64,000 nt of DNA, from NCBI GenBank assembly GCA_013823985.1, contig PNNB01000001.1:128739-192738 (forward strand). Direction: 5' to 3'. Shown in pieces: positions 12,751 to 33,297 of this stretch. Source of the stretch: Sphingopyxis sp. Its GTDB lineage: Bacteria; Pseudomonadota; Alphaproteobacteria; Sphingomonadales; Sphingomonadaceae. Positions within the stretch are counted from its first letter, which is position 1. Every line of letters begins with the position of its first letter. The position numbers and the translations under genes were made by a program. Under the pieces are notes generated by a model. That model had not been told where the DNA came from. It saw only the letters and a list, made by a program, of their open reading frames with translations, and made no database searches.

Positions 12751-12827
12751 GCACCCGTAGCTCAGCTGGATAGAGCATCAGACTACGAATCTGAGGGTCG
12801 GGCGTTCGAATCGCTCCGGGTGCACCA
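12751..12827 (+). tRNA. tRNA-Arg, anticodon ACG
   Basis: GCACCCG acceptor stem pairs with CGGGTGC, followed by ACCA. D-loop AGCTGGATAG, anticodon arm TCAGA-CTACGAA-TCTGA, T-loop GTTCGAATC. 77 nt with encoded CCA. Confidence 0.98.
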
Positions 12828-15995: not shown

Positions 15996-16782
15996 TCAAC
16001 TGGTCGACCGTGCGGCGGTGATTGCCGCTGTGGAGGAGGCCGGTGCGTTGGCGATGACCAGTTGGCGCGAGGGTGCCGCGCCCGATACGCGGGTCTGGGC
16101 AAAGAGCAACGATAGTCCGGTCAGCGATATCGATATGGAAGTTGACGCCCTTTTGAAGGAACGCCTTAGCCGCATCCTGCCCGAAGCTGCGTGGCTGTCG
16201 GAAGAAACCGCCGACGATGCCGCGCGGCTTGACGCGCGTCTTTTGTGGCTGGTCGATCCGATTGATGGCACGCGCGACTATGTGCGGGGTCGCAACGGGT
16301 GGTGCGTGTCCGTTGCGCTCGTAGAAGATGGGCAGCCTACCTTCGCGATCATGGCCGCGCCTGCGCAACAGAAATTGTGGGTCGCCGCCAATGGGGAGGG
16401 CGTGACCTGTAATGGCGACCGTCTTTTCGGCAGCCAACGGCAGGATTTCGCCGGCGCGCGTGTGCCTGCCGACGAATTGCCGAAAATCGATCATGATCTG
16501 GTGACGGTGACGAAGCCCAACAGCATTGCCATGCGGATGACGATGGTCGCGTGTGACCGGGCCGATCTTGTCGCGACATTGCGCTGGGGGCATGAATGGG
16601 ACGTCGCAGCGGCGCATCTGGTGGCGCAGGAAGCGGGGGCAATTGTCACAGATGCTCTGGGGCTTCCGCTATCCTATAATAAACCGGACCCGAGGGATTT
16701 CGGCCTTATCTGCTGCGCACCCGCCATCCACGCAGCCGCCGTTCAGCGGCTGGAAGATCGGGCGCGGAAATTTTTGGCCTAG
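15982..16782 (+). CDS. Inositol monophosphatase / CysQ-like phosphatase
   Basis: WLSEE, WLVDPIDGT and HEWDVAA are the FIG/IMPase motifs. Confidence 0.88.
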   Translation: MRVPDQLVDRAAVIAAVEEAGALAMTSWREGAAPDTRVWAKSNDSPVSDIDMEVDALLKERLSRILPEAAWLSEETADDAARLDARLLWLVDPIDGTRDYVRGRNGWCVSVALVEDGQPTFAIMAAPAQQKLWVAANGEGVTCNGDRLFGSQRQDFAGARVPADELPKIDHDLVTVTKPNSIAMRMTMVACDRADLVATLRWGHEWDVAAAHLVAQEAGAIVTDALGLPLSYNKPDPRDFGLICCAPAIHAAAVQRLEDRARKFLA

Positions 16783-17708
16783 CTTCGCGGCCGGGTCCAT
16801 AGCCCGTCGCGGTCCATCGGACGGGGGTTGTTGGCCACAGCATCGGCAAAAGCTGTTTTGACCCAGCGGAATTTCTCCGGACGGCTGGTATATATCCTCT
16901 GGTCCCAGGCATGCTCACCCGCGCTGCGCACCTGCCTTGCGATGTCACCGTAAATCCCGGCTGCAGATAGCACTGCCCAGCGCGCACGAAAGGGAAGTTC
17001 GACGGCGCCTATACGCGCGGACGCCTCATATTGCTCCGCCTCATCGGCAAGCCAGCGACCGATGAGTGCCAGTTTCTTGCGATTATGCGGACGCATATGT
17101 TCGCCGGGACCAATATCCAAAGTCGCCAGCCAGTCATCCGGCAGGTAGCAGCGACCCGCAGCGTCGTCCTCGGCAATATCCCGGGCGATGTTGGCTAGTT
17201 GAAAGGCAAGCCCGAGATCACAGGCGCGGTCGAGCGTTTCGTCTTCATCCGGAGACACGCCCATGACCACCGCGATCATAACGCCCACTGCACCTGCGAC
17301 ATGGTAGCAATAGCGGTAGAGGTCATTTTCCCGGCGGGGGTGCCAATCCGCCGCATCCAGCGCAAAGCCTTCGATGACATCTTCGGCCATCTTTGTGGTC
17401 AGACCGCATTCCCGTGCGACAATGCCAAGGCAATCAAAGGCGGGTTCGCCCGTGGCCTGTCCGGCCAGCGCCTTCGCGGTCAAATCACGAATGATCGCAA
17501 GCCGTTCCAAAGGATCATCGACCACCGCCATGGCCCCGCCATGGTCCTGCCCATCCGCCATGTCATCGCATTTGCGGCACCAGGCATATAGCAACCAGAC
17601 CCGTTCGCGCGTCGTCCGGTCAAACAGGCGGCTGGCAAAACGGAAGGACTTGGAGCCGCGCGCAATGCTTTCCCGCGCGAAAGCGACGAGCGCGGCGCGG
17701 TCTCTCAC
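16779..17708 (-). CDS. crtB: Phytoene synthase
   Basis: GSKSF, LYAWCRKCDDMAD (DDxxD), YCYHVAGAVG and GLAFQLANIARDI.ED..GRCYLP. GTG start overlaps the LOG stop. Confidence 0.95.
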   Translation of the reverse strand: MRDRAALVAFARESIARGSKSFRFASRLFDRTTRERVWLLYAWCRKCDDMADGQDHGGAMAVVDDPLERLAIIRDLTAKALAGQATGEPAFDCLGIVARECGLTTKMAEDVIEGFALDAADWHPRRENDLYRYCYHVAGAVGVMIAVVMGVSPDEDETLDRACDLGLAFQLANIARDIAEDDAAGRCYLPDDWLATLDIGPGEHMRPHNRKKLALIGRWLADEAEQYEASARIGAVELPFRARWAVLSAAGIYGDIARQVRSAGEHAWDQRIYTSRPEKFRWVKTAFADAVANNPRPMDRDGLWTRPRS

Positions 17709-18286
17709 AAATCGTCCGCTTTCATCTGGAAGATCGTTTTGTGCGGGACATAGGCCGTCATCTTGCCGAGCAGGCCGTCCAATGTGGTGTCGACAAGCAT
17801 GATCCCGGCATGTTGTGGGCGAATGAAACCGACGTCGATCATATTCTGGTTGAAGGCGATCAGCTGGTCATAGAAACCAGAGGCATTCAGAACGCCTACG
17901 GGCTTTTGATGATAGCCCAGTTGCGACCAGCTGATCGCCTCCCACAATTCGTCCATCGTCCCGACACCGCCGGGGATCGTGATGAACCCGTCCGACAAAT
18001 CGGTGAAGCGCGCTTTACGCTCATGCATACCGGATACGACATGCAATTCGGTGCAGCCCTTATGCGCAACTTCGGCGCCGACCAAAGCTTCCGGAATAAT
18101 GCCGATCACTTCGCCACCGGCTTCCAGCGCCGAATCGGCCACCGCGCCCATCAACCCCAGCCGGCCGCCGCCATATACGACCCCAATGCCACGTTCGGCG
18201 AGAGTGCGTCCGACGGTACGGGCCGTCTCGATATAGATGGGGTCTTCTGGTGTTGCCGAACCGCAATAAACCGCAAGTCGCTTCAC
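17705..18286 (-). CDS. LOG family nucleotide phosphoribohydrolase (TIGR00730-like)
   Basis: AVYCGS, VYGGG..GLMG, MHERK and the LOG signature PGGVGTMDE. Confidence 0.92.
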   Translation of the reverse strand: MKRLAVYCGSATPEDPIYIETARTVGRTLAERGIGVVYGGGRLGLMGAVADSALEAGGEVIGIIPEALVGAEVAHKGCTELHVVSGMHERKARFTDLSDGFITIPGGVGTMDELWEAISWSQLGYHQKPVGVLNASGFYDQLIAFNQNMIDVGFIRPQHAGIMLVDTTLDGLLGKMTAYVPHKTIFQMKADDL

Positions 18287-19767
18287 TACTTCAATTCCTC
18301 CAGCATGAGTTCAGCCGTCGCCTTCGCGCTGCCCACGACACCGGGAACCCCGGCGCCTGGATGCGTGCCTGCGCCTACAAAATACAGGTTCGAAATCGCA
18401 TCGTCGCGGTTATGCGCGCGCATATAGGCAGATTGCCACAGCACAGGCTCCAGACTGAATGCGCTCCCCAGATGCGCGGACAGGTCACGCCCGAAATCGG
18501 CGGGGGTGTAATGGAACTGCGTCATAATCCGCGACCGGATGTCGGGGATCAAGCGGCGCTCCAGCTCATCCAAAATCCGTTCCGTCATGGCTTCGCCAAC
18601 GTCGCCGTCCCAATCGAGCGGCGCTTTGCCCATATGGGCAACGGGGGCCAGAACATAGAAGGTGGAACAACCTTCTGGCGCAAGGCTCGGGTCCGTTACC
18701 GTTGGATGGTGCAGATAGAGCGAGAAGTCCTTGGGCAAGACGCCGTTTTTATAAATGTCGTCCAGCAGCCCTTTGTAGCGCGGGCCGAACAGGATCATAT
18801 GGTGCGGGATACCCGGCCATGTCCCCTTGATGCCGAGATGGAGCACGAAGAGAGAAGGCGACCAGCTTTTGCGGTTCAACGATTTCGCCGCCCGCTCGCC
18901 GCGTTTGTTGCTTGTCAGCAGATCCTTGTAGGTGTGCATCAGGTCGCCATTGGATGCGAGCATGTCGCACTCCATGCGCCAGCCTGATTTGGTCCGCACG
19001 CCCGTTACCTTGTCGCCACGCGTTTCGATTTCTTCCACGGGATCGGCCAGACGCAAGGTTCCGCCCAAACGCTCAAAATGCGTGACCATCGCGGCGACCA
19101 GCCTGTTGGTTCCGCCTTTGGCGAACCAGACGCCACCTACTTTTTCAATAGTGTGGATCAGGGCGTAAATCGCGCTTGTCGACATGGGGTTGCCGCCGAC
19201 CAACAGGGTATGGAAGGACAGCGCCTCGCGCAGCTTTTCGTCCTTCACATAGGAAGACACGATGGAATAGACCGACCGCCACGCCTGATATTTCATCAGG
19301 GCAGGGGCCGCCTTGATCATCGATGCGAAATCAAGAAAGGCAACGGTGCCCAGCTTTTGATAGCCTTCCTTATACACGCCCTTCGAATATTCGAGGAACT
19401 TGCGATACCCCTCGACATCGTCCGGGTTCAATTTCTCGATTTCGGCCTTCAATCCCGGGGCGTCGTTGGAATAGTCAAAATTGGTGCCGTCGGACCAGTT
19501 CAGCCGGTAAAAAGGGAAGACCGGCATCAACTCGATATCGTCGGCCATTTTATGGCCGGACAATGCCCATAATTCTTCAAGGCAGGGCGGGTCGGTGATG
19601 ACTGTCGGACCACCGTCAAACGTGAATCCGTCTTTTTCCCAATAATAGCCGCGGCCGCCGGGTTTATCCCGGGCTTCAATGATGGTGGTGGCTATGCCTG
19701 CCGACTGCAACCGGATGGCGAGCGCAAGCCCACCAAATCCGGCACCTATGATTGCTGCGGTTTTCAT
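18286..19767 (-). CDS. crtI: Phytoene desaturase
   Basis: IIGAGFGGLA FAD motif, FTFDGGPTVIT, HTLLVGGNP and LYFVGAGTHPGAGVPGV. Confidence 0.97.
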   Translation of the reverse strand: MKTAAIIGAGFGGLALAIRLQSAGIATTIIEARDKPGGRGYYWEKDGFTFDGGPTVITDPPCLEELWALSGHKMADDIELMPVFPFYRLNWSDGTNFDYSNDAPGLKAEIEKLNPDDVEGYRKFLEYSKGVYKEGYQKLGTVAFLDFASMIKAAPALMKYQAWRSVYSIVSSYVKDEKLREALSFHTLLVGGNPMSTSAIYALIHTIEKVGGVWFAKGGTNRLVAAMVTHFERLGGTLRLADPVEEIETRGDKVTGVRTKSGWRMECDMLASNGDLMHTYKDLLTSNKRGERAAKSLNRKSWSPSLFVLHLGIKGTWPGIPHHMILFGPRYKGLLDDIYKNGVLPKDFSLYLHHPTVTDPSLAPEGCSTFYVLAPVAHMGKAPLDWDGDVGEAMTERILDELERRLIPDIRSRIMTQFHYTPADFGRDLSAHLGSAFSLEPVLWQSAYMRAHNRDDAISNLYFVGAGTHPGAGVPGVVGSAKATAELMLEELK

Positions 19768-20930
19768 TTCTTTTTGCTCCGGATCGCGGTGATGGCTTTC
19801 CCGATAGGAATGGGCGGCTTGCCAGACAATATGCGCGCCTTGTCACCGGGGCTCGTCTTTCCCGCATAGAAGCGTTCGATCAATCCGGGCTTTAACCTGT
19901 AGAAGCGCTCCAGAATTTTATAGCGATCGGTAACATCAGCGCCACGGAACAACATGCGGTTCAACATGCGGTAGAATTTGCCATTCTGCCAATGTTCCTG
20001 CGCGCGCTGGCGCATCACCATGTTCAGCTTGTCGCCATCAAGGTCGGGCTGCTCGGCGATAAAGATGGCATTGCGCACCGCGTCCGGCAAGGAATAGCTG
20101 GTAACGGCCTGGAAAAAGGCCCCGCGCGCACCGGCTTTTGCCGTCCGCCCGCTGCCGCTTGCCCAGTAATTTTCGAGGTCGCCGCCCATTACGACGGGCA
20201 AGACGCCATTTTCTTCGCGCAACACCCGCTCCACCTTCCAGCCCTTGGTATCGGCATATTCCGCAATGCGCTGCCGGTAGCGGCGGGGATCGTGGTTGGG
20301 CGTATCGCTATAATAGGTGTCCTCGACAAATATCTTGTCCATGCCAAAGGGCAGGACATAGACGAAGCGATAGCCGTCATATTGTTCGACCGTCGCGTCC
20401 ATGACGATTGGCTTGGTCAGATTATGGGGTTCGGACAATTGCATCAACTGTCCGGTAAATTTCTGCCATCCGCAATCCAGATGGTTAAGGTCGCCTGCGC
20501 CGCGCACGTCGATCACGCCCCCGGCATTGATCCGCTGCGCCCCGTCAAGCACGACCAAACGGGGCGATACGGCCTTCACCTCACGGCCAAGCATCAGGGC
20601 AGAGGCGGGAAGGCTGTTCCGCAAAACCCAGTCGAGCCGTTCCGACTCAATGGTGTAATAAATATTGTCTAGCGACCGGCTATGCGCGGGGAAACGCACC
20701 TCATATCCGGACCAGCCATAGGTGACGAGCGGCGCCGTCAGCCAGCGGTGCTCGGGCAAAATGTCGCTCGCGAAATAGCTCCAGATATGGTTGCCACCAA
20801 AGCTGTCGCCTTGCTCGATCAGTACGATTTTGAGCTCGGGCCGCATCTTGGCCAGCGCAAGCGCGATCAGCCCACCGGCAAGCCCGCCGCCGACTATCGC
20901 GAAATCACATTTAATATTTTCTCGGTTCAC
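19764..20930 (-). CDS. crtY: Lycopene beta-cyclase
   Basis: IVGGGLAG, GGNHIWS, WQKF.G, MDATVEQ.DGYRFVYVLP, EDTYYSD and ERFY. GTG start. Confidence 0.96.
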   Translation of the reverse strand: MNRENIKCDFAIVGGGLAGGLIALALAKMRPELKIVLIEQGDSFGGNHIWSYFASDILPEHRWLTAPLVTYGWSGYEVRFPAHSRSLDNIYYTIESERLDWVLRNSLPASALMLGREVKAVSPRLVVLDGAQRINAGGVIDVRGAGDLNHLDCGWQKFTGQLMQLSEPHNLTKPIVMDATVEQYDGYRFVYVLPFGMDKIFVEDTYYSDTPNHDPRRYRQRIAEYADTKGWKVERVLREENGVLPVVMGGDLENYWASGSGRTAKAGARGAFFQAVTSYSLPDAVRNAIFIAEQPDLDGDKLNMVMRQRAQEHWQNGKFYRMLNRMLFRGADVTDRYKILERFYRLKPGLIERFYAGKTSPGDKARILSGKPPIPIGKAITAIRSKKK

Positions 20931-21036: not shown

Positions 21037-21786
21037 ATGACGCATAAGGCAAAAGTGATTGCGATTTACAGCCTGAAAGGCGGTGTGGGCAAAACCACGC
21101 TTGCGGTCAACCTTGCGGCCGAAGCGGCGTTGCGGCGTGGCCGCAAAACCCTGTTGTGGGATCTGGACCCACAATCTGCCGCCAGCTTTCTTCTGCGGCA
21201 TGAGCCTGACCGCAAGGCGAAGGCGCGCTCGGTGTTTGAACGCGATATCGCGCCGGGGGAACTGATTGTGCCAACGCAGATCAAGGGCCTCGACCTCTTG
21301 CCCGCCGATATCTCGTTGCGGGGTCTCGACGGCTTTTTCCATGCGCTGGGCAAGAAAAAGCGGCTGGCCAAGATCGTCGAGGATATCCGCGACAAATATG
21401 ACCGCATCTTCCTCGATTGCCCGCCGGGCCTGACCGAAACCAGCGAACAGATGATGCGCGCCGCCGATATCATTCTGGTGCCCGTCATCCCGTCACCTTT
21501 ATCGCGCCGGGCCTTGGACGAGGTCGTGGAGCATTTGCGCACACATCATAAGGGCCACGCCCCTCTACTGCCGGTTTTCTCGATGGTCGACCGTCGCCGT
21601 AATTTGCATGGTGTGGCCTTGTCCGCCGACCCCGATTGGCCCCGCGTTCCCATGGCAAGCGCCGTCGAGCAAATGGCCCTCCATCGCTCGCCGGTGGGTC
21701 TTTTCGCGCACCGCTCCCTAGCGGGAGAAGCTTTCCATATGCTTTCCGGCGCAATTGAGCGTAAGCTGTCCAAAATGAAGGATTGA
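21037..21786 (+). CDS. Orphan ParA/Soj-family ATPase
   Basis: Deviant Walker A KGGVGKTT, DLDPQ and FLDCPP. No parB nearby. Confidence 0.9.
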   Translation: MTHKAKVIAIYSLKGGVGKTTLAVNLAAEAALRRGRKTLLWDLDPQSAASFLLRHEPDRKAKARSVFERDIAPGELIVPTQIKGLDLLPADISLRGLDGFFHALGKKKRLAKIVEDIRDKYDRIFLDCPPGLTETSEQMMRAADIILVPVIPSPLSRRALDEVVEHLRTHHKGHAPLLPVFSMVDRRRNLHGVALSADPDWPRVPMASAVEQMALHRSPVGLFAHRSLAGEAFHMLSGAIERKLSKMKD

Positions 21787-21808: not shown

Positions 21809-22870
21809 ATGCGGAAAAAATGGCTTTGGGCGGTGCTGGCCGTCGCTCTGGTGGCAGGTGCGGGTGCTTATGCAAAGCGGGACGCCATTGCCATGAACCT
21901 GCTGAAACGCGGTGCAGACGCGGCGATGGCGCGCAACACGCTGGCCAGCTTGCCCAAAGATCAACTGCATGTCGCCTTCTGCGGGACGGGATCACCTTTG
22001 CCCAGCCGCGACCGCGCGGCAGCGTGCACCGCGGTCATTGCAGATGGCCGGGTATTTGTGTTCGACATGGGCGAAGGGTCCGGGGAAACGCTCTCGCTCA
22101 TGGGCTTCCCGCTCGACAAGATTCAAGGTGTCTGGCTGACCCATCTGCACAGCGACCATTTTGAAGGACTTGGCCCGTTCACGCTGCAACGCTGGGCGGG
22201 TAGCAGCGCCGAAAAGCCGCTTGCCATCTTCGGTCCGGAAGGCGTTACCGAAATCACCGAGGGCTATAACGCGGTCTATCGCATCGATTCCACCTACCGC
22301 ATCGCCCATCATGGCGCTGATGTAGTGAAGCCTTCGGGCTTCGGCATGGCGGGCACGGCGATCACGCCGGGACCGGTTTATGACGCGGGCGGGGTGCGGA
22401 TCACCGCGTTCGCCGTGGATCATGACCCTATCAAGCCTGCCTTCGGCTACCGTGTCGACTGGAAAGGCCGCAGCGTCACGATCAGCGGGGATACCGCCTT
22501 CACACCCGCCCTTGCCCAGGCGGCCAAGGGCACAGACCTGTATGTCAGCGAACTCCTTTCGCCGCGCATGGTCAAGATATTGGAAGATAGCGCACGCAGC
22601 GCGGGCAACGCCAACCGGGCCAAAATCTTCAGTGATATCCAGAACTACCACATTAGCCCCGAACAAGCCGCCGACGTCGCAAAAAGCGCCGGCGTGGGCA
22701 TGCTCGCCTTCACGCATATTGTCCCGTCCGTTCCCAAACCGCTCGAATTTGCGCTGACCGGCCGCGCGGTCAGTCGTTTCTCAGGGCCGATCAAAGTCAT
22801 GCACGACGGCGATGTCATCAGCATTGCGGGCAAGGATAAATTTGAAACTCAGAATTTGCTAAGTCGCTAG
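21809..22870 (+). CDS. RNase Z/arylsulfatase-like MBL-fold hydrolase with N-terminal anchor
   Basis: GTGSP, VFDMGEG, THLHSDH, VDH, ISGDT and FTH motifs; hydrophobic N-terminus. Confidence 0.85.
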   Translation: MRKKWLWAVLAVALVAGAGAYAKRDAIAMNLLKRGADAAMARNTLASLPKDQLHVAFCGTGSPLPSRDRAAACTAVIADGRVFVFDMGEGSGETLSLMGFPLDKIQGVWLTHLHSDHFEGLGPFTLQRWAGSSAEKPLAIFGPEGVTEITEGYNAVYRIDSTYRIAHHGADVVKPSGFGMAGTAITPGPVYDAGGVRITAFAVDHDPIKPAFGYRVDWKGRSVTISGDTAFTPALAQAAKGTDLYVSELLSPRMVKILEDSARSAGNANRAKIFSDIQNYHISPEQAADVAKSAGVGMLAFTHIVPSVPKPLEFALTGRAVSRFSGPIKVMHDGDVISIAGKDKFETQNLLSR

Positions 22871-22890
22871 ATGCCGGAGTAAGGGGGGCT

Positions 22891-23637
22891 ATGGAATATG
22901 GCCTCCCCGTCCTGCTCTCTGCGTTGGCGATGACATTGATCGTCGGCGTCCGCTATCTGGTGGTCAGCGGCGCCTTTGCTTGGGCAACGCGGGTCAGATA
23001 TCCGAAGCTTTACGCAGGGCTGGAACCCCAGATGCGCCGCGAAATCGGCTGGAGCCTTGCGAGTGCTGCCATCTATGGCATCCCGGCCGGGATCGTCGCC
23101 TGGGGTTGGGACAGTCAGGGGTGGACACTCATCTACCGGAACTGGGCGGACTATCCACTCTGGTACGTGCCGCTATCGATATTCCTCTACCTGTTCGCGC
23201 ACGACACATGGTTTTATTGGACGCACCGGCTGATGCACCGGCCCTGGTGGTTCAAAAAAGCGCATGCCGTACATCACGAAAGCCGCCCGCCAACCGCATG
23301 GGCGGCCATGTCCTTCCACCCGTGGGAGGCTCTGACCGGCGCGCTTGTTATCCCTATTCTGGCGTTCATCATTCCCATTCATGTTGGCGCAATCGGCATT
23401 GTGCTGACTGTAATGACCGTTATGGGTGTAACCAACCATATGGGGTGGGAGCTATTCCCGAGATTCATGGTTAACGGCAAATTAGGGAATTGGCTGATAA
23501 CAGCAACGCATCACCAGAAACATCACGATGCGTATCGGGGGAATTATGGGCTTTATTTCAGGTTTTGGGACAAAATTTGCGGCACCGATCTCGGTCTTGG
23601 GGATTGGGGGCGCACTTCTCGCGGGGACAGCGCTTAG
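22891..23637 (+). CDS. crtG: Sterol-desaturase-family di-iron hydroxylase, probable carotenoid 2,2'-beta-hydroxylase CrtG
   Basis: His boxes HDTWFYWTHRLMH, HAVHH, NH and HHQKHH, plus GNYGLYFRFWD. Resembles Brevundimonas CrtG as recalled; sits in the crt neighbourhood. Confidence 0.75.
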   Translation: MEYGLPVLLSALAMTLIVGVRYLVVSGAFAWATRVRYPKLYAGLEPQMRREIGWSLASAAIYGIPAGIVAWGWDSQGWTLIYRNWADYPLWYVPLSIFLYLFAHDTWFYWTHRLMHRPWWFKKAHAVHHESRPPTAWAAMSFHPWEALTGALVIPILAFIIPIHVGAIGIVLTVMTVMGVTNHMGWELFPRFMVNGKLGNWLITATHHQKHHDAYRGNYGLYFRFWDKICGTDLGLGDWGRTSRGDSA

Positions 23638-24022
23638 CGCTTCGGCGACGACCTCCACACTGGATGTCAGCGTGCACGGCCTGCGCAGCATGAAAGGCAA
23701 TGTCCTTGTGTGCGTGACCGCCAACCCGAAATTTTTCCCCGATTGCAGCAAGGACCCCAAAAGCTACCGCGCCAAGGTTCCGGCCCGGGATGCCGAAAAT
23801 GTGAGTTTCCAAGGATTAGCCAAAGGCACCTATGCCGTGGCGCTGATCCATGATGAAAATGCCAACAGCAAAATGGACATGGCGATTTTCCTGCCCAAGG
23901 AAGGCTTTGGCTTTTCGCGCAATCCGGCTGTCGTTACCGGCCCGCCCAAGTTCAAAGCCGCCGCTTTTGCCGTGGATGCGGACGAAGTCAGCCAACGGGT
24001 GAAAATGAAATATATGCTCTGA
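23597..24022 (+). CDS. DUF2141 family exported protein
   Basis: G.YAVALIHDEN.NSKMD and PKEGFGFSRNP...GPPKF are DUF2141 motifs. Start uncertain (TTG 23597, or ATG 23528/23549); overlaps the crtG 3' end. Confidence 0.82.
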   Translation: MGIGGALLAGTALSASATTSTLDVSVHGLRSMKGNVLVCVTANPKFFPDCSKDPKSYRAKVPARDAENVSFQGLAKGTYAVALIHDENANSKMDMAIFLPKEGFGFSRNPAVVTGPPKFKAAAFAVDADEVSQRVKMKYML

Positions 24023-24100
24023 TGCTGGTCCCATGCGATAAGCATGGAACCAATTGAGGAGACCGGGGGTTTGTCGCCTTGATAACCGCGGGAGCATTTC

Positions 24101-24979
24101 ATGAACATTTCGAAGATTCTGGCCACGACCTGTGCACTATTGGCCTTTGGCGCGAGCCAACCGGCGTTTGCGCAGGCGCAGGAGGCTGACAGTTCGAAGG
24201 CTGAGGTGCCCGATCGTGGCGTTTTTGCTGGCGATTGGCTGACAATCGGCATCGGTGGTGGATATGGTCCCAGCTATGACGGTTCCGACGACTATATTCT
24301 TTTCCCGGCTCCTTTGGCGCAAGGCAGCGTAGCTGGATTTGATTTCGGCGCACGCGGCCCGGGACTTTATGTCGATCTGGTGCGCGACAGCAATGCCGAG
24401 GGCAATGTAAAATTTCTCGCAGGACCGCTCGTCCGCGTGCGCACCGACCGCAACAATAATATCAAGGACACGGTCGTCCGGGCGCTCGGCAAAGAGGATG
24501 TAGCCATCGAACTCGGGGCGACGGCGGGTGTCTCTTTCTCCAAAGTGCTCAATCCCTATGACAGCCTGACACTGTCCACCGATATCCAGTGGGACGTCGC
24601 CAAAGCGCATCGCGGACGCCTGATCAGCCCGAACATCAGCTATTCGACGCCGCTGTCGACCGCGATCTTCACCAACCTCAGCTTTTCGGCGACCCATGTC
24701 GACGGCAACTATGCCGATACCTATTTCAGCATTGATGCAGCGGGAAGCGCCGCAAGCGGGCTTCCGACCTTCGATGCCAAAGGTGGCTGGAAAAGCTACG
24801 GCGCATCCTTGCTCGGCGGCGTTGACCTGTCGGGTGATGCACGTGATGGCGGCTGGGGTGTGTTCGGCCTTGTCAGCTATTCAAAACTGACCGGTGACGC
24901 AAAACGGTCCCCTGTAACCTCCATCCGGGGCGATGCAGACCAGTGGTTTCTCGCCGGTGGAATCAGCTACACATTCTGA
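24101..24979 (+). CDS. MipA/OmpV family outer-membrane protein
   Basis: Signal peptide; PSYDGSDDY...P, Y.DTYFSI and SP motifs; C-terminal ISYTF. Confidence 0.85.
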   Translation: MNISKILATTCALLAFGASQPAFAQAQEADSSKAEVPDRGVFAGDWLTIGIGGGYGPSYDGSDDYILFPAPLAQGSVAGFDFGARGPGLYVDLVRDSNAEGNVKFLAGPLVRVRTDRNNNIKDTVVRALGKEDVAIELGATAGVSFSKVLNPYDSLTLSTDIQWDVAKAHRGRLISPNISYSTPLSTAIFTNLSFSATHVDGNYADTYFSIDAAGSAASGLPTFDAKGGWKSYGASLLGGVDLSGDARDGGWGVFGLVSYSKLTGDAKRSPVTSIRGDADQWFLAGGISYTF

Positions 24980-25045
24980 AACCGGCTTTAACCAGTTGGA
25001 AATGGTGATTGGGGCATGGTGCAGCCAAATAATAGGGGCTCGCAC

Positions 25046-25444
25046 ATGATCCACGAACGCCAAGAAAACCTGCGGAACGACGCCAAAAGCGTTGGCTACA
25101 GCCGCGAAAGCCGCGCCAGCTGGATTGGCTCCAAGCTCGCCCAGACCACGGGAATCGGTATCGACCAGCTCGATGCGGTCCACAATTATATGTGGCTGCG
25201 CATCCTGCAAAACAACGCTGCGACGCCCATTGCTACCAATGAGGCAGACCATCTGGCGATGCACATCGTCAAGCTGGCCCTCCTAGCCGAAACCGCAGCG
25301 GCCGATGGCGGTCCCAAGGCAGCCATGGCAGCGGTCATGGAAGCAAGCGGAACCGAGGTTGACCCCTTGCTGGCCCAGAATTTTCTGCGGCTGGCCAGTT
25401 CCTCTATATTCTGGATGGCACTGGATTCCGCAGGAAGTGCCTAA
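25046..25444 (+). CDS. Hypothetical protein resembling a degenerate, internally deleted HD-GYP domain
   Basis: By-eye alignment of both ends to the HD-GYP consensus ([16 protein letters not shown] vs AGTQFDPEVVEAFLEL). AGGGG SD before ATG 25046. Confidence 0.6.
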   Translation: [132 protein letters not shown]

Positions 25445-25460
25445 GCGGCCGAAAGCCGGC

Positions 25461-27224
25461 CTAGCCTAGATCTTCCAGATCTTCGTCTAGCTCGTCTGCC
25501 TCCACAACTTTTGGTTTAGCAGGCCGCCGGCCTTTCGCCTTCGGTGGTTCTGCTTCGTCTTCCATCGCAGCTTCATGCGCTGCACTTTGTGCCGCCTGAT
25601 AACCGGTTCCACCCGAAACAAGCTTATCGAGCGATGAGCCGTCAAGCCCAAGCTCCTTCATCAAGCCGTCGATAACAGGGGCCTGTGCCCGATAGGACAG
25701 GGCAGCAGCGACGGCATCGGTTGCGAGATTACCGCTGCTGCCATTTCCGGACGCGCCGGAGCGGCCACCGCCATTTTGCGTGATACCATCCACCTGCACG
25801 ATTTTGATCGAATCGATCGCTTCCAGCGGTTTGGCGGATTCGCGAACAACTTCGGGTAGAACCTTCAGAAGAGCCATTTTTGTTTGAAGCGAAATCTGGT
25901 TGGACGACAGGATATTTGCGGCCTCATTGATCGCGCGTTGACCTGCGGCTTCCACTTCAAAGCGGATCCGCGCAGCTTCAGCGCGCAACTTTTCAGCTTC
26001 AGCTTCGCCTTCGGCCGCCATCCGCACAGCTTCGGCGCGGTTCGCAGCGGCTTCTCTTTCTGCTTCTGCCTCGACCTTTACGCTGATTGCCTGACGTTCG
26101 GCCTCTTTTGATGCTTCAATCAGTTCGATCCGCTTACCGCGTTCGGCGATCTCCGTTTCACGGGCCGTAGTCACCTGTTCTTCAGCAGCCACAGCCTTCG
26201 CGCGGGCATCGTCGGCGTCCGCGCGGGCCTGACTTTCCTCACGTGACTTGTTCTGGACGGCAATTTGCTGCTCTTGACGGGCGATTTCCAAGGCCTGTTC
26301 CTGCGCAATCTGCGCCTCCTGCACGGCCCGGTCCGCCTCGATCTGGGCGGAATCAATCTGCTGTTTGGATTTGATTTGTGCGTCCTGCGCCTCTTGGTCG
26401 CGCAATGCTTTTTCACGGGCCACTTCGGATGCCTGCATGGCACGGCGGACTTCGACTTCGCGTTCCTGCTCCAACCGGGCAAATTCATTGTCGCGGCTGA
26501 TTTCAAAGGAGCGCTTATCGGCCTCCAGATTTTTGGTTTCGATCTGGACGCGGGTGTCTTGCTCAATGTCGTTGCGTGCCTTTTTACGCAACTCGATTTG
26601 CTCGGTCAGCTTGGTCAGACCTTCGGCGTCAAAGGCATTGTTGGCATTGAAATGTTCAATGCTCGTCTGGTCCAGGCCGGTCAGCGACACCGATTCAAGC
26701 TCAAGGCCGTTCATGGCCAGATCGCTGGATGAGGCCTGTTGCACCTTTTGTACGAAGTCCGCGCGTTGTTCATGCAATTCATTCATGGTCATGCCGGCCG
26801 CGACCGAGCGCAGCGCGTCGACAAATTTGCCTTCGACCAGATCCTTCAGCAATTCGGGTTGCATGGTGCGCAGGCCGAGCGTTTGTGCCGCCATCGCCAG
26901 CGACTGCGCATCGGGAGCGACACGCACATAGAACTCCGCTTTTACATCAATACGCAACCGGTCGAGTGTGATGAGCGCATCGACATTGTTGCGTTCGACA
27001 GCGAGCCGGACGGTGTTCATATTCACGGGCATGGTTTCATGGAGAACGGGAAGCACCAGAGCGCCGCCATTCATCACCACTTTCTCGCCACCCAACCCTG
27101 TCCGGATAAAGGCAATTTCCTTGGTCGCCCGCTTGTACAGGCGCGTAATGACCAGTCCGAAAACGATCAGCGTCACCAGAACCATGCCGGCATAAATCAG
27201 GGTCGAAATCAAACTCTCGGTCAT
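25461..27224 (-). CDS. Flotillin/SPFH family protein, YqiK-like
   Basis: N-terminal TM, GEKVV.NGGALVLP, LVEGKFVDALRSVAA and NNAFDAEG; long AEA-rich coiled coil. Confidence 0.92.
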   Translation of the reverse strand: MTESLISTLIYAGMVLVTLIVFGLVITRLYKRATKEIAFIRTGLGGEKVVMNGGALVLPVLHETMPVNMNTVRLAVERNNVDALITLDRLRIDVKAEFYVRVAPDAQSLAMAAQTLGLRTMQPELLKDLVEGKFVDALRSVAAGMTMNELHEQRADFVQKVQQASSSDLAMNGLELESVSLTGLDQTSIEHFNANNAFDAEGLTKLTEQIELRKKARNDIEQDTRVQIETKNLEADKRSFEISRDNEFARLEQEREVEVRRAMQASEVAREKALRDQEAQDAQIKSKQQIDSAQIEADRAVQEAQIAQEQALEIARQEQQIAVQNKSREESQARADADDARAKAVAAEEQVTTARETEIAERGKRIELIEASKEAERQAISVKVEAEAEREAAANRAEAVRMAAEGEAEAEKLRAEAARIRFEVEAAGQRAINEAANILSSNQISLQTKMALLKVLPEVVRESAKPLEAIDSIKIVQVDGITQNGGGRSGASGNGSSGNLATDAVAAALSYRAQAPVIDGLMKELGLDGSSLDKLVSGGTGYQAAQSAAHEAAMEDEAEPPKAKGRRPAKPKVVEADELDEDLEDLG

Positions 27225-27230
27225 TATCTT

Positions 27231-27872
27231 TTATCCTTCCAATCGGGGCACATGCTGCCCGCCCTGTGAAATTGCCTTGAATAAATCGCCCTCGCGCCGA
27301 ACAAGCAGCAGCTTTTCACCCGATGTGAATTGCTGGCCTTCATTGTCGGGTTCGACCATCACAAAATGCGGGTGGCCATGAATATCAAGCACCTTGGCCC
27401 GGGCAGGGGAGCCGTTTTTCGCCGTTCCCAGATCCAGAACCGCAAAGCGGCCAACGAGACTATCGATGGAAACAGCCGTCGTTTCGTCCTTGGGCATAAT
27501 CCGCCCCAAAAGCCGCGCGAGAATGGCTGTTGCAGGTAACGCTGCAAGCGCAGCAAGTGGCGTTGCCAGCCACGGCGTCAGCAACATCCCGGTCAGGCTC
27601 TGGACAATTTGCTGCCCGGCGAATCCGATCAGCATGAACATCAACAGAAGCAGCGCGAGCCATATCATCAGGGGCAAGCGCCCCAGTCCCAGAAAACTGA
27701 GAAGACCGTCGGCAACGCCCGCACCATCGACATCGCCATCCATGTCGCTGTCAAGATCGGGCGCAAAATCGGTAAGCCCGCTAAACTGCAAGATCATGAG
27801 GCCGACCAACAGGAAGCCCGCCCCGACAAAGGGGAGGTTTTCACTAGCGAACCAGAAATCAAGCACTTGCAA
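27231..27872 (-). CDS. YqiJ-like (DUF1449 + NfeD-type OB fold) flotillin partner
   Basis: N.PF, WL.LGRLPLMIWL, LVGRFA and PARAKV.D.HG..HFVMVEP. Lies 6 bp upstream of the flotillin gene. Confidence 0.88.
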   Translation of the reverse strand: MQVLDFWFASENLPFVGAGFLLVGLMILQFSGLTDFAPDLDSDMDGDVDGAGVADGLLSFLGLGRLPLMIWLALLLLMFMLIGFAGQQIVQSLTGMLLTPWLATPLAALAALPATAILARLLGRIMPKDETTAVSIDSLVGRFAVLDLGTAKNGSPARAKVLDIHGHPHFVMVEPDNEGQQFTSGEKLLLVRREGDLFKAISQGGQHVPRLEG

Positions 27873-31223: not shown

Positions 31224-31297
31224 GACACATGGGCGAGGGGCAGGGCGCGAGTCAACAGGCACCTCTCGACAGCGCATGGGAGAAGGCCTATCACGCA

Positions 31298-33297
<2,000 letters not shown>

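Follow-up and report, generated by a model that had tools for sequence, protein, structure and literature searches.

The window analysed here is a stretch of 64,000 nucleotides from a Sphingopyxis sp. assembly (GCA_013823985.1, contig PNNB01000001.1, positions 128,739 to 192,738, forward strand), and the subject of this report is a short gene in it, at 25046..25444, encoding a protein of 132 residues that we call the mini protein. We read it as a miniaturised protein that stands alone, has no catalytic function, descends from the pseudo-HD-GYP domain at the N-terminal end of tandem cyclic-dinucleotide phosphodiesterases of the V-cGAP3 type and works as a binding module, and we put the probability of this reading as a whole at about 0.6. 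Its parts are not equally firm. The identity and origin of the protein are close to certain, and that it is non-catalytic is predicted with high confidence from the missing metal site and pocket. That it acts by binding a partner has, in our estimate, about an even chance of being right, and the idea that this partner belongs to cyclic di-GMP (c-di-GMP) or cyclic GMP-AMP (cGAMP) signalling is a tentative one. The gene and those parts of it that are referred to below are:

25046..25444, plus strand, including the stop codon: mini pseudo-HD-GYP gene, 132 residues, from the open reading frame (ORF) and the homologue alignment.
25100..25216, plus strand: segment A, residues 19-57, the first two core HD-GYP helices ('GHSxR', 'HD'), from HMMER and MAFFT.
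25211..25240, plus strand: variable loop (about residues 56-65) that marks the deletion scar, seen as an alignment gap and as a block of low predicted local distance difference test score (pLDDT).
25229..25429, plus strand: segment B, residues 62-128, the last three pseudo-HD-GYP helices, from HMMER, hhalign and tblastn.

We searched 1.84 billion representative proteins exhaustively with the family profile (HMMER) and obtained 17 matches; those outside the family were all HD-GYP-related with the exception of one chimera (P0101). They comprised a 145-residue protein (P0097; E = 4e-20), a 469-residue tandem HD-GYP protein (P0098; 3e-18), a 163-residue protein that retains 'HWDGKGTP' (P0099; 7e-15), the chimera itself, and ten tandem or fragmentary HD-GYP proteins of 237-537 residues. 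Ten of the 17 were scanned against Pfam. A complete C-terminal catalytic HD_5/HD domain was present in P0098, P0102 and P0105 and a nearly complete one in P0108, with a LuxR-type helix-turn-helix domain also in P0102 and P0108. The N-terminal regions of P0099, P0103, P0104 and P0106 matched HD_5 above the gathering score (33.8 bits for P0099 against a cut-off of 27.2, and 32-56 bits for the N-domain fragments); P0100 matched at the start of its catalytic domain only, and P0097 not at all. Within P0098, the family profile missed the catalytic domain; it matched the N-terminal domain, in two collinear stretches, with positions 21-57 of the profile on residues 41-77 (independent E-value 2e-6) and positions 70-133 on residues 191-254 (8e-20). 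When P0098 was compared with the window by tblastn, 56% identity was obtained over 36 residues (E = 2e-7).

The tandem enzymes provide the link to proteins of known structure. Alignment of the family with nine tandem N-domains by hhalign gave a probability of 98.6% (E = 1.3e-15), and alignment of the tandem N-domains with HD-GYP proteins of the PDB gave 99.0% (E = 6.6e-18) over the whole domain. P0098 aligned end to end with V-cGAP3 of V. cholerae (5z7c; residues 13-453 on 17-456, E = 1.2e-134). A bridging profile, made from mini, intermediate and N-domain sequences, matched the N-domain of 5z7c (residues 30-261) at 1.6e-29, PA4781 (4r8z) at 5.9e-7, DvhD (9rbz) at 5e-4 and PmGH (4mcw) at 1.2e-3. 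All of these matches consisted of two segments, with an insertion of 60-100 residues in the target (about 100 in 5z7c and about 63 in 4r8z). Homology of the mini protein to the HD-GYP fold was thus found through a chain that runs from the family to the tandem N-domains and from these to the HD-GYP proteins of the PDB. One part of an alignment was discarded on the way: hhalign placed the N-terminal helices of the mini protein on the helix that precedes the GYP loop, opening no gap of about 110 columns, whereas in the HMMER and MAFFT alignments these helices fall on 'GHSxR...LLKD', at an identity of about 40%.

In the multiple alignment, segment A aligns with 'GHSIRACWMGTKLAQAIGL...VYYAVLLKDLGC' and segment B with 'IHIGGRIAQLAQIADIFYMTGGANAALAEIMRRSGTWLDPKLAASFMQLASSPVFWTALES', the homologous motif of segment B being 'RIAxLAQxADxF...GG..AA..EV.RRSG.W.DP.L...F..LA..P.FW..L'; the DP (106-107), F113 and F122-W123 of this segment are common to the mini protein and its parents. 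The first helix of the parent ('LSEILSAFSYALDLTEGQP') is missing, and about 100-113 central parent residues are gone at the scar, where the gap in the HMMER alignment covers residues 78-190 of P0098. This gap took 'LGCSxNAAR', the helices of the nucleotide pocket and the 'DEHWDGxGxP' loop that is equivalent to the HHE/GYP region ('LDEHWDGSGLP' in the alignment). The mini protein stops at the inter-domain boundary (against 'FWTALESETIAQ...'), with the whole catalytic C-terminal domain absent, and it does not have two HD-GYP-fold domains in one chain.

The metal-ligand motif H...HD...H...HHE...D is likewise not found in the mini protein. The position of the first His is occupied by R20, which varies within the family, that of HD by R52-I53, and that of the Asp of 'ADxFD' by L79, while the H and HHE positions lie in the deleted region. 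An earlier note on this DNA, which had aligned the protein to HD-GYP by hand, reported replacement of H by R, HD by RI and D by L and the absence of the HHExxDGxGYP region; the aligned register and the central gap confirm both observations. The Arg of 'GHSxR' (R23) is retained and invariant.

The parent N-domains are themselves already degenerate, with KD for HD, LDE for HHE, GxP for GYP and Q for Asp, so that most of the ligand loss is older than the miniaturisation. Their first His is 100% conserved, and judging from the alignment it is the only one of the ligands that was lost along with miniaturisation. By the same comparison, the mini protein descends from the pseudo-HD-GYP domain at the N-terminus of a V-cGAP3-type tandem enzyme, and not from a catalytic HD-GYP domain. 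The residues conserved alike in the mini family and in 118 tandem N-domains (R23, G28, G36, L42, I74, G89, A93, G102, D106, P107, F113, F122 and W123) plausibly represent the structural core. Parental invariants that the mini family has lost are H20, K52-D53, 'LGCSxNAAR', Q79, F84, E96, R100 and W104, and it has gained invariant or nearly invariant residues of its own at S25, S29, K30, D43, H46, R52, A71, V75, A96, M98, A110, Q111, R115, A117, S119, I121 and M124. Expressed in the motifs of the tandem N-domain (GHSxR, LLKDxGCSxNAAR, DEHWDGxGxP, RIAxLAQxADxF, WxDP and FW), the mini protein keeps the Arg of GHSxR, DP and FW, and has lost the H, KD, GCSxNAAR, DEHWDG..P, Q, F and W104. Such a pattern is more in keeping with a protein under new functional constraint than with a fragment retained passively.

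At E-values of 1e-3 or below we found 94 homologues of 129-145 residues (49-98% identity), a family that bears the database label 'hypothetical protein'. A Pfam domain was recognised in none of them, and Sphingorhabdus sp. IMCC26285 was the sole organism name among them. Their alignment contains 14 invariant and 26 nearly invariant positions. When one genome was scanned for each GTDB species, the mini gene was present in 35 genomes, all classified as Sphingorhabdus or as unclassified Sphingomonadales or Sphingomonadaceae apart from a few metagenome-assembled genomes (MAGs) with broader or different labels. The closest genomic copy was that of S. contaminans KCTC 32445 (95% identity), the 35 species-level genomes spanning 46-95%; every copy is open and has an ATG start, and one extends past the end of its contig. 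The ratio of non-synonymous to synonymous substitution rates (dN/dS; Nei-Gojobori, 147 pairs with dS of 0.05-1) had a median of 0.19 and a range of 0.05-0.38. In four genomes it was 0.09-0.28 for the mini gene versus 0.05-0.14 for the neighbouring mipA. Purifying selection acts on the mini gene, a little less strongly than on mipA; with intact orthologues and no neutral drift, the mini gene is conserved and not the decaying remnant that the earlier note had named as the outcome that would speak against it.

Across the 35 genomes the mini gene lies downstream of a cluster of genes on the same strand, which in the window consists of:

21809-22870, plus strand: exported hydrolase of the metallo-β-lactamase (MBL) fold, which heads the conserved cluster (Pfam).
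22891-23637, plus strand: FA_hydroxylase-family membrane protein (Pfam).
23528-24022, plus strand: DUF2141 protein (Pfam).
24101-24979, plus strand: MipA (Pfam).
21809..24979, plus strand: the co-directional upstream cluster as a whole, given as context (Pfam, and synteny across the 35 genomes).

NCBIfam gave no specific names for these upstream neighbours. Same-strand genes for DUF2141, FA_hydroxylase and the MBL hydrolase were present upstream at 34, 33 and 27 of the 35 loci, respectively; mipA lies between DUF2141 and the mini gene at 23 of them, and the downstream side is variable. Overall, the mini gene occupies the FA_hydroxylase-DUF2141-(MipA) slot in 34 of the 35 genomes.

Longer forms occupy the same slot. 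Tandem enzymes of 459-471 residues are widespread in Sphingorhabdus and Parasphingorhabdus, and their genes lie in the slot at loci L045, L046 (Sphingorhabdus sp. M41), L047 and L048. The order in M41 is FA_hydroxylase-DUF2141-tandem-mipA and that in a Sphingorhabdus MAG is …DUF2141-mipA-tandem-thiC, with the slot occupied likewise in a third genome. The gene for P0098 (469 residues) lies directly 3' of a mipA, and the protein encoded by that mipA shares 88% identity with the MipA of the window. The 163-residue form, which NCBI names 'HD domain-containing phosphohydrolase', is encoded between DUF2141 and mipA in a Sphingorhabdus MAG (L042, 6001-6492), and the 145-residue form comes after DUF2141 (L044, 3778-4215). 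Because full-length, 163-residue and 145-residue forms are found in one and the same slot, the mini gene is the positional orthologue of the full-length enzyme, produced by reduction. No mini copy was found beside the tandem genes at the loci checked; a 135-residue ORF after mipA in Sphingorhabdus sp. M41, considered as a co-existing mini copy, proved to be an unrelated membrane protein. The window holds no HDxGK or other trace of the catalytic domain.

Neighbour-joining trees of MipA and DUF2141, built from short sequences and carrying no support values, had three of the tandem-bearing loci basal or nearly so and most mini loci in one large clade, with the loci of the 163- and 145-residue forms on a separate branch and L045 (tandem) and L010 (mini) placed inconsistently; they are consistent with the tandem form being ancestral and the mini form derived. 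The 163- and 145-residue forms share the parental 'MFQS' N-terminus. They may represent an independent reduction series rather than direct intermediates, and their presence at the same locus may hint that reduction took place more than once. In sum, the proposal of the earlier note that the protein derives from the helical core of HD-GYP is borne out by the transitive profiles, by the structural ranking given below, and by positional orthology with full-length enzymes.

Two of the profile matches differ from this picture. P0100 (237 residues, on a 175 kb contig) is of the tandem type and has a similar central deletion in its N-domain, with different boundaries and with the first helix retained; its catalytic domain ends soon after the HD motif. 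This suggests that the central region of the pseudo-domain was deleted more than once, in P0100 probably within a decaying gene. The chimera P0101 (145 residues, on a 1353 bp metagenome contig from ENA) joins an unrelated N-terminal part, which has a signal-peptide-like start and a 'DPVAYF...' region, to the 29 C-terminal residues of a mini protein, and is probably the product of a deletion or an assembly artefact.

An AlphaFold2 model of the mini protein, made from the family alignment (pLDDT 84.7; predicted template modelling score 0.78), is a five-helix bundle, with helices at residues 20-34, 39-54, 66-100, 107-117 and 120-131 following a disordered tail (1-16). The lowest pLDDT within the fold (76) was in the block 51-60. 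The protein has no signal peptide or hydrophobic segment and is cytoplasmic by sequence. When the model was compared with the PDB using Foldseek, chains of DvhD (9rbz) were at ranks 1-3 and 6, V-cGAP3 (5z7c) at rank 5 with a probability of 0.98 and a query-normalised TM-score of 0.67, an HD phosphohydrolase (6zpa) at rank 11, and the PAS/HD-GYP structure of DvhD (9rc0) at rank 14. The alignments ran to 150-195 columns for a query of 132 residues, implying a large insertion in the target. Helical proteins such as spidroin, aequorin and globin were interspersed among the HD-GYP matches, and Foldseek alone is not decisive.

Several results weigh against the reading proposed here. With the mini protein as query, a Pfam search (hmmscan, E ≤ 10) returned no HD or HD_5 match at all, its sole return, Tail_tube, being judged spurious, and a search of NCBIfam gave no match. 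Sequence searches of the PDB with the mini protein and with a profile of 49 family sequences produced no usable match, the only one (E = 5) being a de novo helical repeat that was put down to composition. Every Foldseek E-value was above 0.5, and none was significant. The family was also aligned by hhalign with four HD-GYP domain sequences from the PDB, which had been retrieved with a bait consensus. Residues 62-117 fell on HD-GYP 101-160, the C-terminal third (P = 4e-4), at a probability of only 35% and with only the C-terminal half of the protein covered, and the fold assignment therefore rests on the transitive links. The window contains no other HD-GYP gene, nor a GGDEF, EAL or CD-NTase gene. 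The non-synonymous rate of the mini gene is 2-3 times that of the adjacent mipA, a sign of moderate constraint. Finally, the contigs from a freshwater metatranscriptome that cover 25047-25400 are assembled and may include DNA carry-over; they lend weak support to transcription of the mini gene.

These searches also bear on what the earlier note had said. Its statement that the protein belongs to no named family agrees with the lack of matches in Pfam, NCBIfam and the PDB, and both of its hand alignments were regained by independent means, the C-terminal one in the same register by hhalign with HD-GYP domains of the PDB, and the two segments together by HMMER with P0098. The check that it had proposed, by profile and structure searches, succeeded in part: HD-GYP structures top the Foldseek list and profile homology is present transitively, whereas the direct hits were not significant. 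No miniature HD-GYP form is described in a survey preprint on HD-GYP domains (10.1101/2021.11.05.467447) or in the papers retrieved by full-text literature searches.

How does the mini protein compare with known systems? Both of its retained segments are collinear with the N-domain of V-cGAP3 (VCA0931; V. cholerae, 5z7c) and of its homologues, P0098 and that of M41. Like that domain it has no complete metal site, and it shares its genomic slot with the Sphingorhabdus relatives; unlike it, the mini protein has neither the first helix, nor the central 110 or so residues (with KDxGCSxNAAR and DEHWDGxGxP), nor an attached catalytic HD-GYP domain. The N-domain of V-cGAP3 is reportedly regulatory. 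With the catalytic proteins PmGH (4mcw) and PA4781 (4r8z), and with HD_5 (PF13487), the mini protein shares distantly homologous first two and last three helices, and in these the Arg of 'GHSxR' and the 'DP' of 'FDP'. Set against catalytic HD-GYP domains as defined by HD_5 and HD (PF01966), it lacks the ligands and the HHE/GYP region and stays below the Pfam threshold, and no activity would be expected of it. To judge by sequence, then, the mini protein lies outside the HD-GYP profile and has neither ligands nor GYP loop, yet it is demonstrably homologous.

Stand-alone HD-GYP domains are rare (Galperin and Chou, 10.1101/2021.11.05.467447), and inactive HD-GYP proteins act via protein-protein contacts or as receptors (10.1101/2021.11.05.467447; PMC13090378). 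The structure of DvhD with bound c-di-GMP, which is not hydrolysed, illustrates a degenerate HD-GYP domain acting as a receptor, and the site at which both DvhD and PmGH hold the nucleotide lies in the region of the HD/HHE helices and GYP loop (PMC13090378). DvhD (9rbz/9rc0), HnoD, RpfG-type proteins and ECA3548 resemble the mini protein in being derived from HD-GYP, with substituted ligands and with binding instead of hydrolysis, a property that the mini protein would share. However, they have full-length HD-GYP domains (about 160-200 residues, including the GYP loop) at the C-terminal end of multidomain proteins, whereas the mini protein is a stand-alone half-domain, and the nucleotide-binding region that is intact in DvhD-like receptors has been deleted from it.

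Since there is neither a metal site nor a pocket, hydrolysis of cyclic dinucleotides should not be possible, and we infer that the canonical nucleotide pocket of PmGH and DvhD cannot exist in the mini protein. A role in binding is suggested by the invariant polar residues that only the mini family possesses (S29, K30, D43, H46, R52, Q111, R115 and S119), and also by the retained F-W helix, which in the parents leads into the catalytic domain. The partner would most likely be a protein. Cyclic-dinucleotide signalling and the upstream envelope/lipid cluster are both candidate arenas. A connection with cGAMP is no less plausible than one with c-di-GMP, because 5z7c, the nearest solved relative of the full-length forms, was deposited as a 3'3'-cGAMP-specific phosphodiesterase.

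We propose that, in an ancestor of a Sphingorhabdus clade, the full-length gene at this locus lost its catalytic C-terminal HD-GYP domain and, from the N-domain, the first helix as well as some 110 central residues carrying the nucleotide pocket and the GYP-type loop. What remains is a compact bundle of five helices, i.e., the two N-terminal core helices and the last three, including the invariant F-W helix. A regulatory function that the N-domain had in the ancestor could persist in this bundle although the enzyme is gone, if a partner is so placed. One form of the proposal, which we consider less likely than not, is that of a new kind of small trans-acting regulator derived from a pseudoenzyme domain: the five-helix core would have been retained, once the catalytic half had gone, for its ability to bind and control another protein by itself. 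That protein might be an enzyme, encoded at another site, that makes or hydrolyses cyclic dinucleotides, or else a factor in envelope biogenesis, and the binding surface of the core would be a new one, formed by the eight polar residues listed above.

Alternatively, the mini protein might be a receptor or sponge for a small ligand, i.e., a dinucleotide (c-di-GMP, 3'3'-cGAMP or pGpG/pApG) or another molecule bound at a new site. We consider this rather unlikely. The precedent is DvhD, a degenerate HD-GYP protein that binds c-di-GMP without hydrolysing it (PMC13090378) and whose chains head the Foldseek list, and the invariant polar or charged cluster unique to the mini family (K30, D43, H46, R52, Q111 and R115) could form such a site. 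However, the HD/HHE helices and GYP loop that hold the nucleotide in DvhD and PmGH are just what has been deleted, and the profile libraries (Pfam and NCBIfam) recognised no nucleotide-binding motif.

The genomic context raises a different alternative, in which the mini protein would be an accessory factor of the FA_hydroxylase-DUF2141-(MipA) cluster, serving, for instance, in the assembly or regulation of a membrane-lipid or outer-membrane process, with no tie to cyclic dinucleotides left. This co-directional cluster is the one piece of context that does not vary between the mini, intermediate and full-length forms; the intergenic gaps are short (66 nucleotides between mipA and the mini gene in the window), and the mipA-mini junction is spanned by one contig, from a run of uncertain type that may be RNA. 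Nevertheless, this explanation seems improbable to us. The neighbours are exported or membrane proteins, whereas the mini protein is cytoplasmic by sequence; MipA is absent from 12 of the 35 loci, and the HD-GYP-derived gene can stand before or after mipA. A conserved -10-like box suggests that the mini gene has its own promoter, and synteny within a single genus-level group says little about functional coupling.

A functionless remnant of a decayed phosphodiesterase gene, still open by chance, might also look like this, more than 70% of the parent gene having been lost, apparently decaying versions being known (P0100, and P0103, P0106 and P0107, which look frameshifted or are fragments), and evolution being faster than that of mipA. 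This explanation is already largely refuted and we regard it as very improbable, given that the gene is ATG-started and intact in all 35 species-level genomes under the range of identity and dN/dS reported above, and has its invariant and nearly invariant positions, a confidently predicted fold and a conserved Shine-Dalgarno-like motif. Finally, the lack of a direct profile match to HD/HD_5 or to HD-GYP proteins of the PDB, the non-significant Foldseek E-values and the alanine-rich composition could be taken to indicate an unrelated bundle that resembles HD-GYP by chance between alanine/leucine-rich helices, but this is refuted by the profile searches (nearly all of the library-wide matches, with E-values from 3e-18 to 1e-3, being HD-GYP proteins and showing a collinear two-segment pattern), by hhalign, by the tblastn match to the tandem protein and by the intermediates at the shared locus, and we give it practically no credence.

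Having set out these alternatives to a miniaturised pseudo-HD-GYP binding module, we turn to the gene itself. The ORF list gave it as 25016..25444 (plus strand), and the homologue alignment fixed its start at the ATG at 25046. The ATG at 25016, which would give a protein of 142 residues, was rejected as it sits in the conserved -10-like box, which has no ATG in the orthologues. An antisense ORF (24881-25264) overlaps the gene; codon-level selection and the homologues favour the plus-strand frame. Two signals precede the start codon:

25034..25038, plus strand: AGGGG, a putative Shine-Dalgarno-like motif 7 nucleotides before the ATG at 25046.
25013..25020, plus strand: conserved GGCATGGT box (GGCATAAT/GGCATAGT in orthologues), about 25-30 nucleotides 5' of the ATG, recognised by its conservation.

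AAGGG or AGGGG is kept 7-10 nucleotides ahead of the ATG in the window and at 16 orthologous loci; together with the ORF list and the homologue alignment, this upholds the coordinates, the intact ORF and the Shine-Dalgarno sequence given in the earlier note. The upstream box might possibly be the -10 element of a promoter of the mini gene's own. A consensus promoter scan of 24700-25700 found nothing, and an Rfam scan around the mini gene found no riboswitch or other known RNA.

The next gene downstream is convergent with the mini gene, and its ORF ends 16 nucleotides past the mini stop codon. It belongs to a pair on the minus strand (25461-27872) that encodes a flotillin (Band_7 and Flot domains) and a YqiJ/NfeD-like membrane protein. 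This pair was found downstream at three of the 35 orthologous loci and at L005, and is thus not a conserved context. The 16-nucleotide gap between the two genes contains a GC-rich inverted repeat, GGCCG-aaagc-CGGCC (25445-25463), a possible terminator for both directions; it lacks a T-run and was not picked up in a terminator scan.

Other features of the window were as follows. The MBL-fold hydrolase (21809-22870) showed sub-threshold similarity to RNase Z and to the anti-Pycsar protein Apyc1 (PF23023, E = 3e-4), and matched the NCBIfam entry 'cyclic nucleotide-degrading phosphodiesterase' (E = 2e-17) far below its cut-off. Although it stands beside an HD-GYP-derived gene, its signal-peptide-like N-terminus argues for a periplasmic role. 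Upstream of it, ORFs of 309, 193, 493 and 388 residues on the minus strand (16779-20930) and one of 249 residues on the plus strand (21037-21786) match by size and order the crtB, lysine-decarboxylase-like, crtI, crtY (lycopene cyclase) and ParA-like genes; the set used for this match lies upstream of the cluster at L001, L003, L042 and L048. A thiamine pyrophosphate riboswitch was found at 31296-31401 on the plus strand (Rfam RF00059; 65.7 bits, E = 1e-10). From related loci it probably controls thiC, which lies a few kb 3' of the HD-GYP-derived gene at L001 and L046-L048. A tRNA gene is located at 12751-12824 on the plus strand (RF00005; 66 bits).

Whereas the known non-catalytic HD-GYP proteins are full-length and lie inside larger proteins, here about half of a degenerate domain survives alone, at a site where relatives carry a full-length cGAMP/c-di-GMP phosphodiesterase. 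The locus thus offers a case of conversion of an enzyme to a mini-protein derived from a pseudoenzyme, with forms of 163 and 145 residues at the same locus for comparison. The narrow range of the family, Sphingorhabdus-like freshwater bacteria of a single Sphingomonadales clade, limits its impact; it does provide a handle for annotating a family of 'hypothetical proteins', and it makes testable both what the smallest useful remnant of the HD fold is and what the N-domain of V-cGAP3-type enzymes, which is not catalytic, can do by itself. If the mini protein is indeed a trans-acting regulator, that N-domain would have a separable function, and the mini protein would be the minimal system in which to find it.

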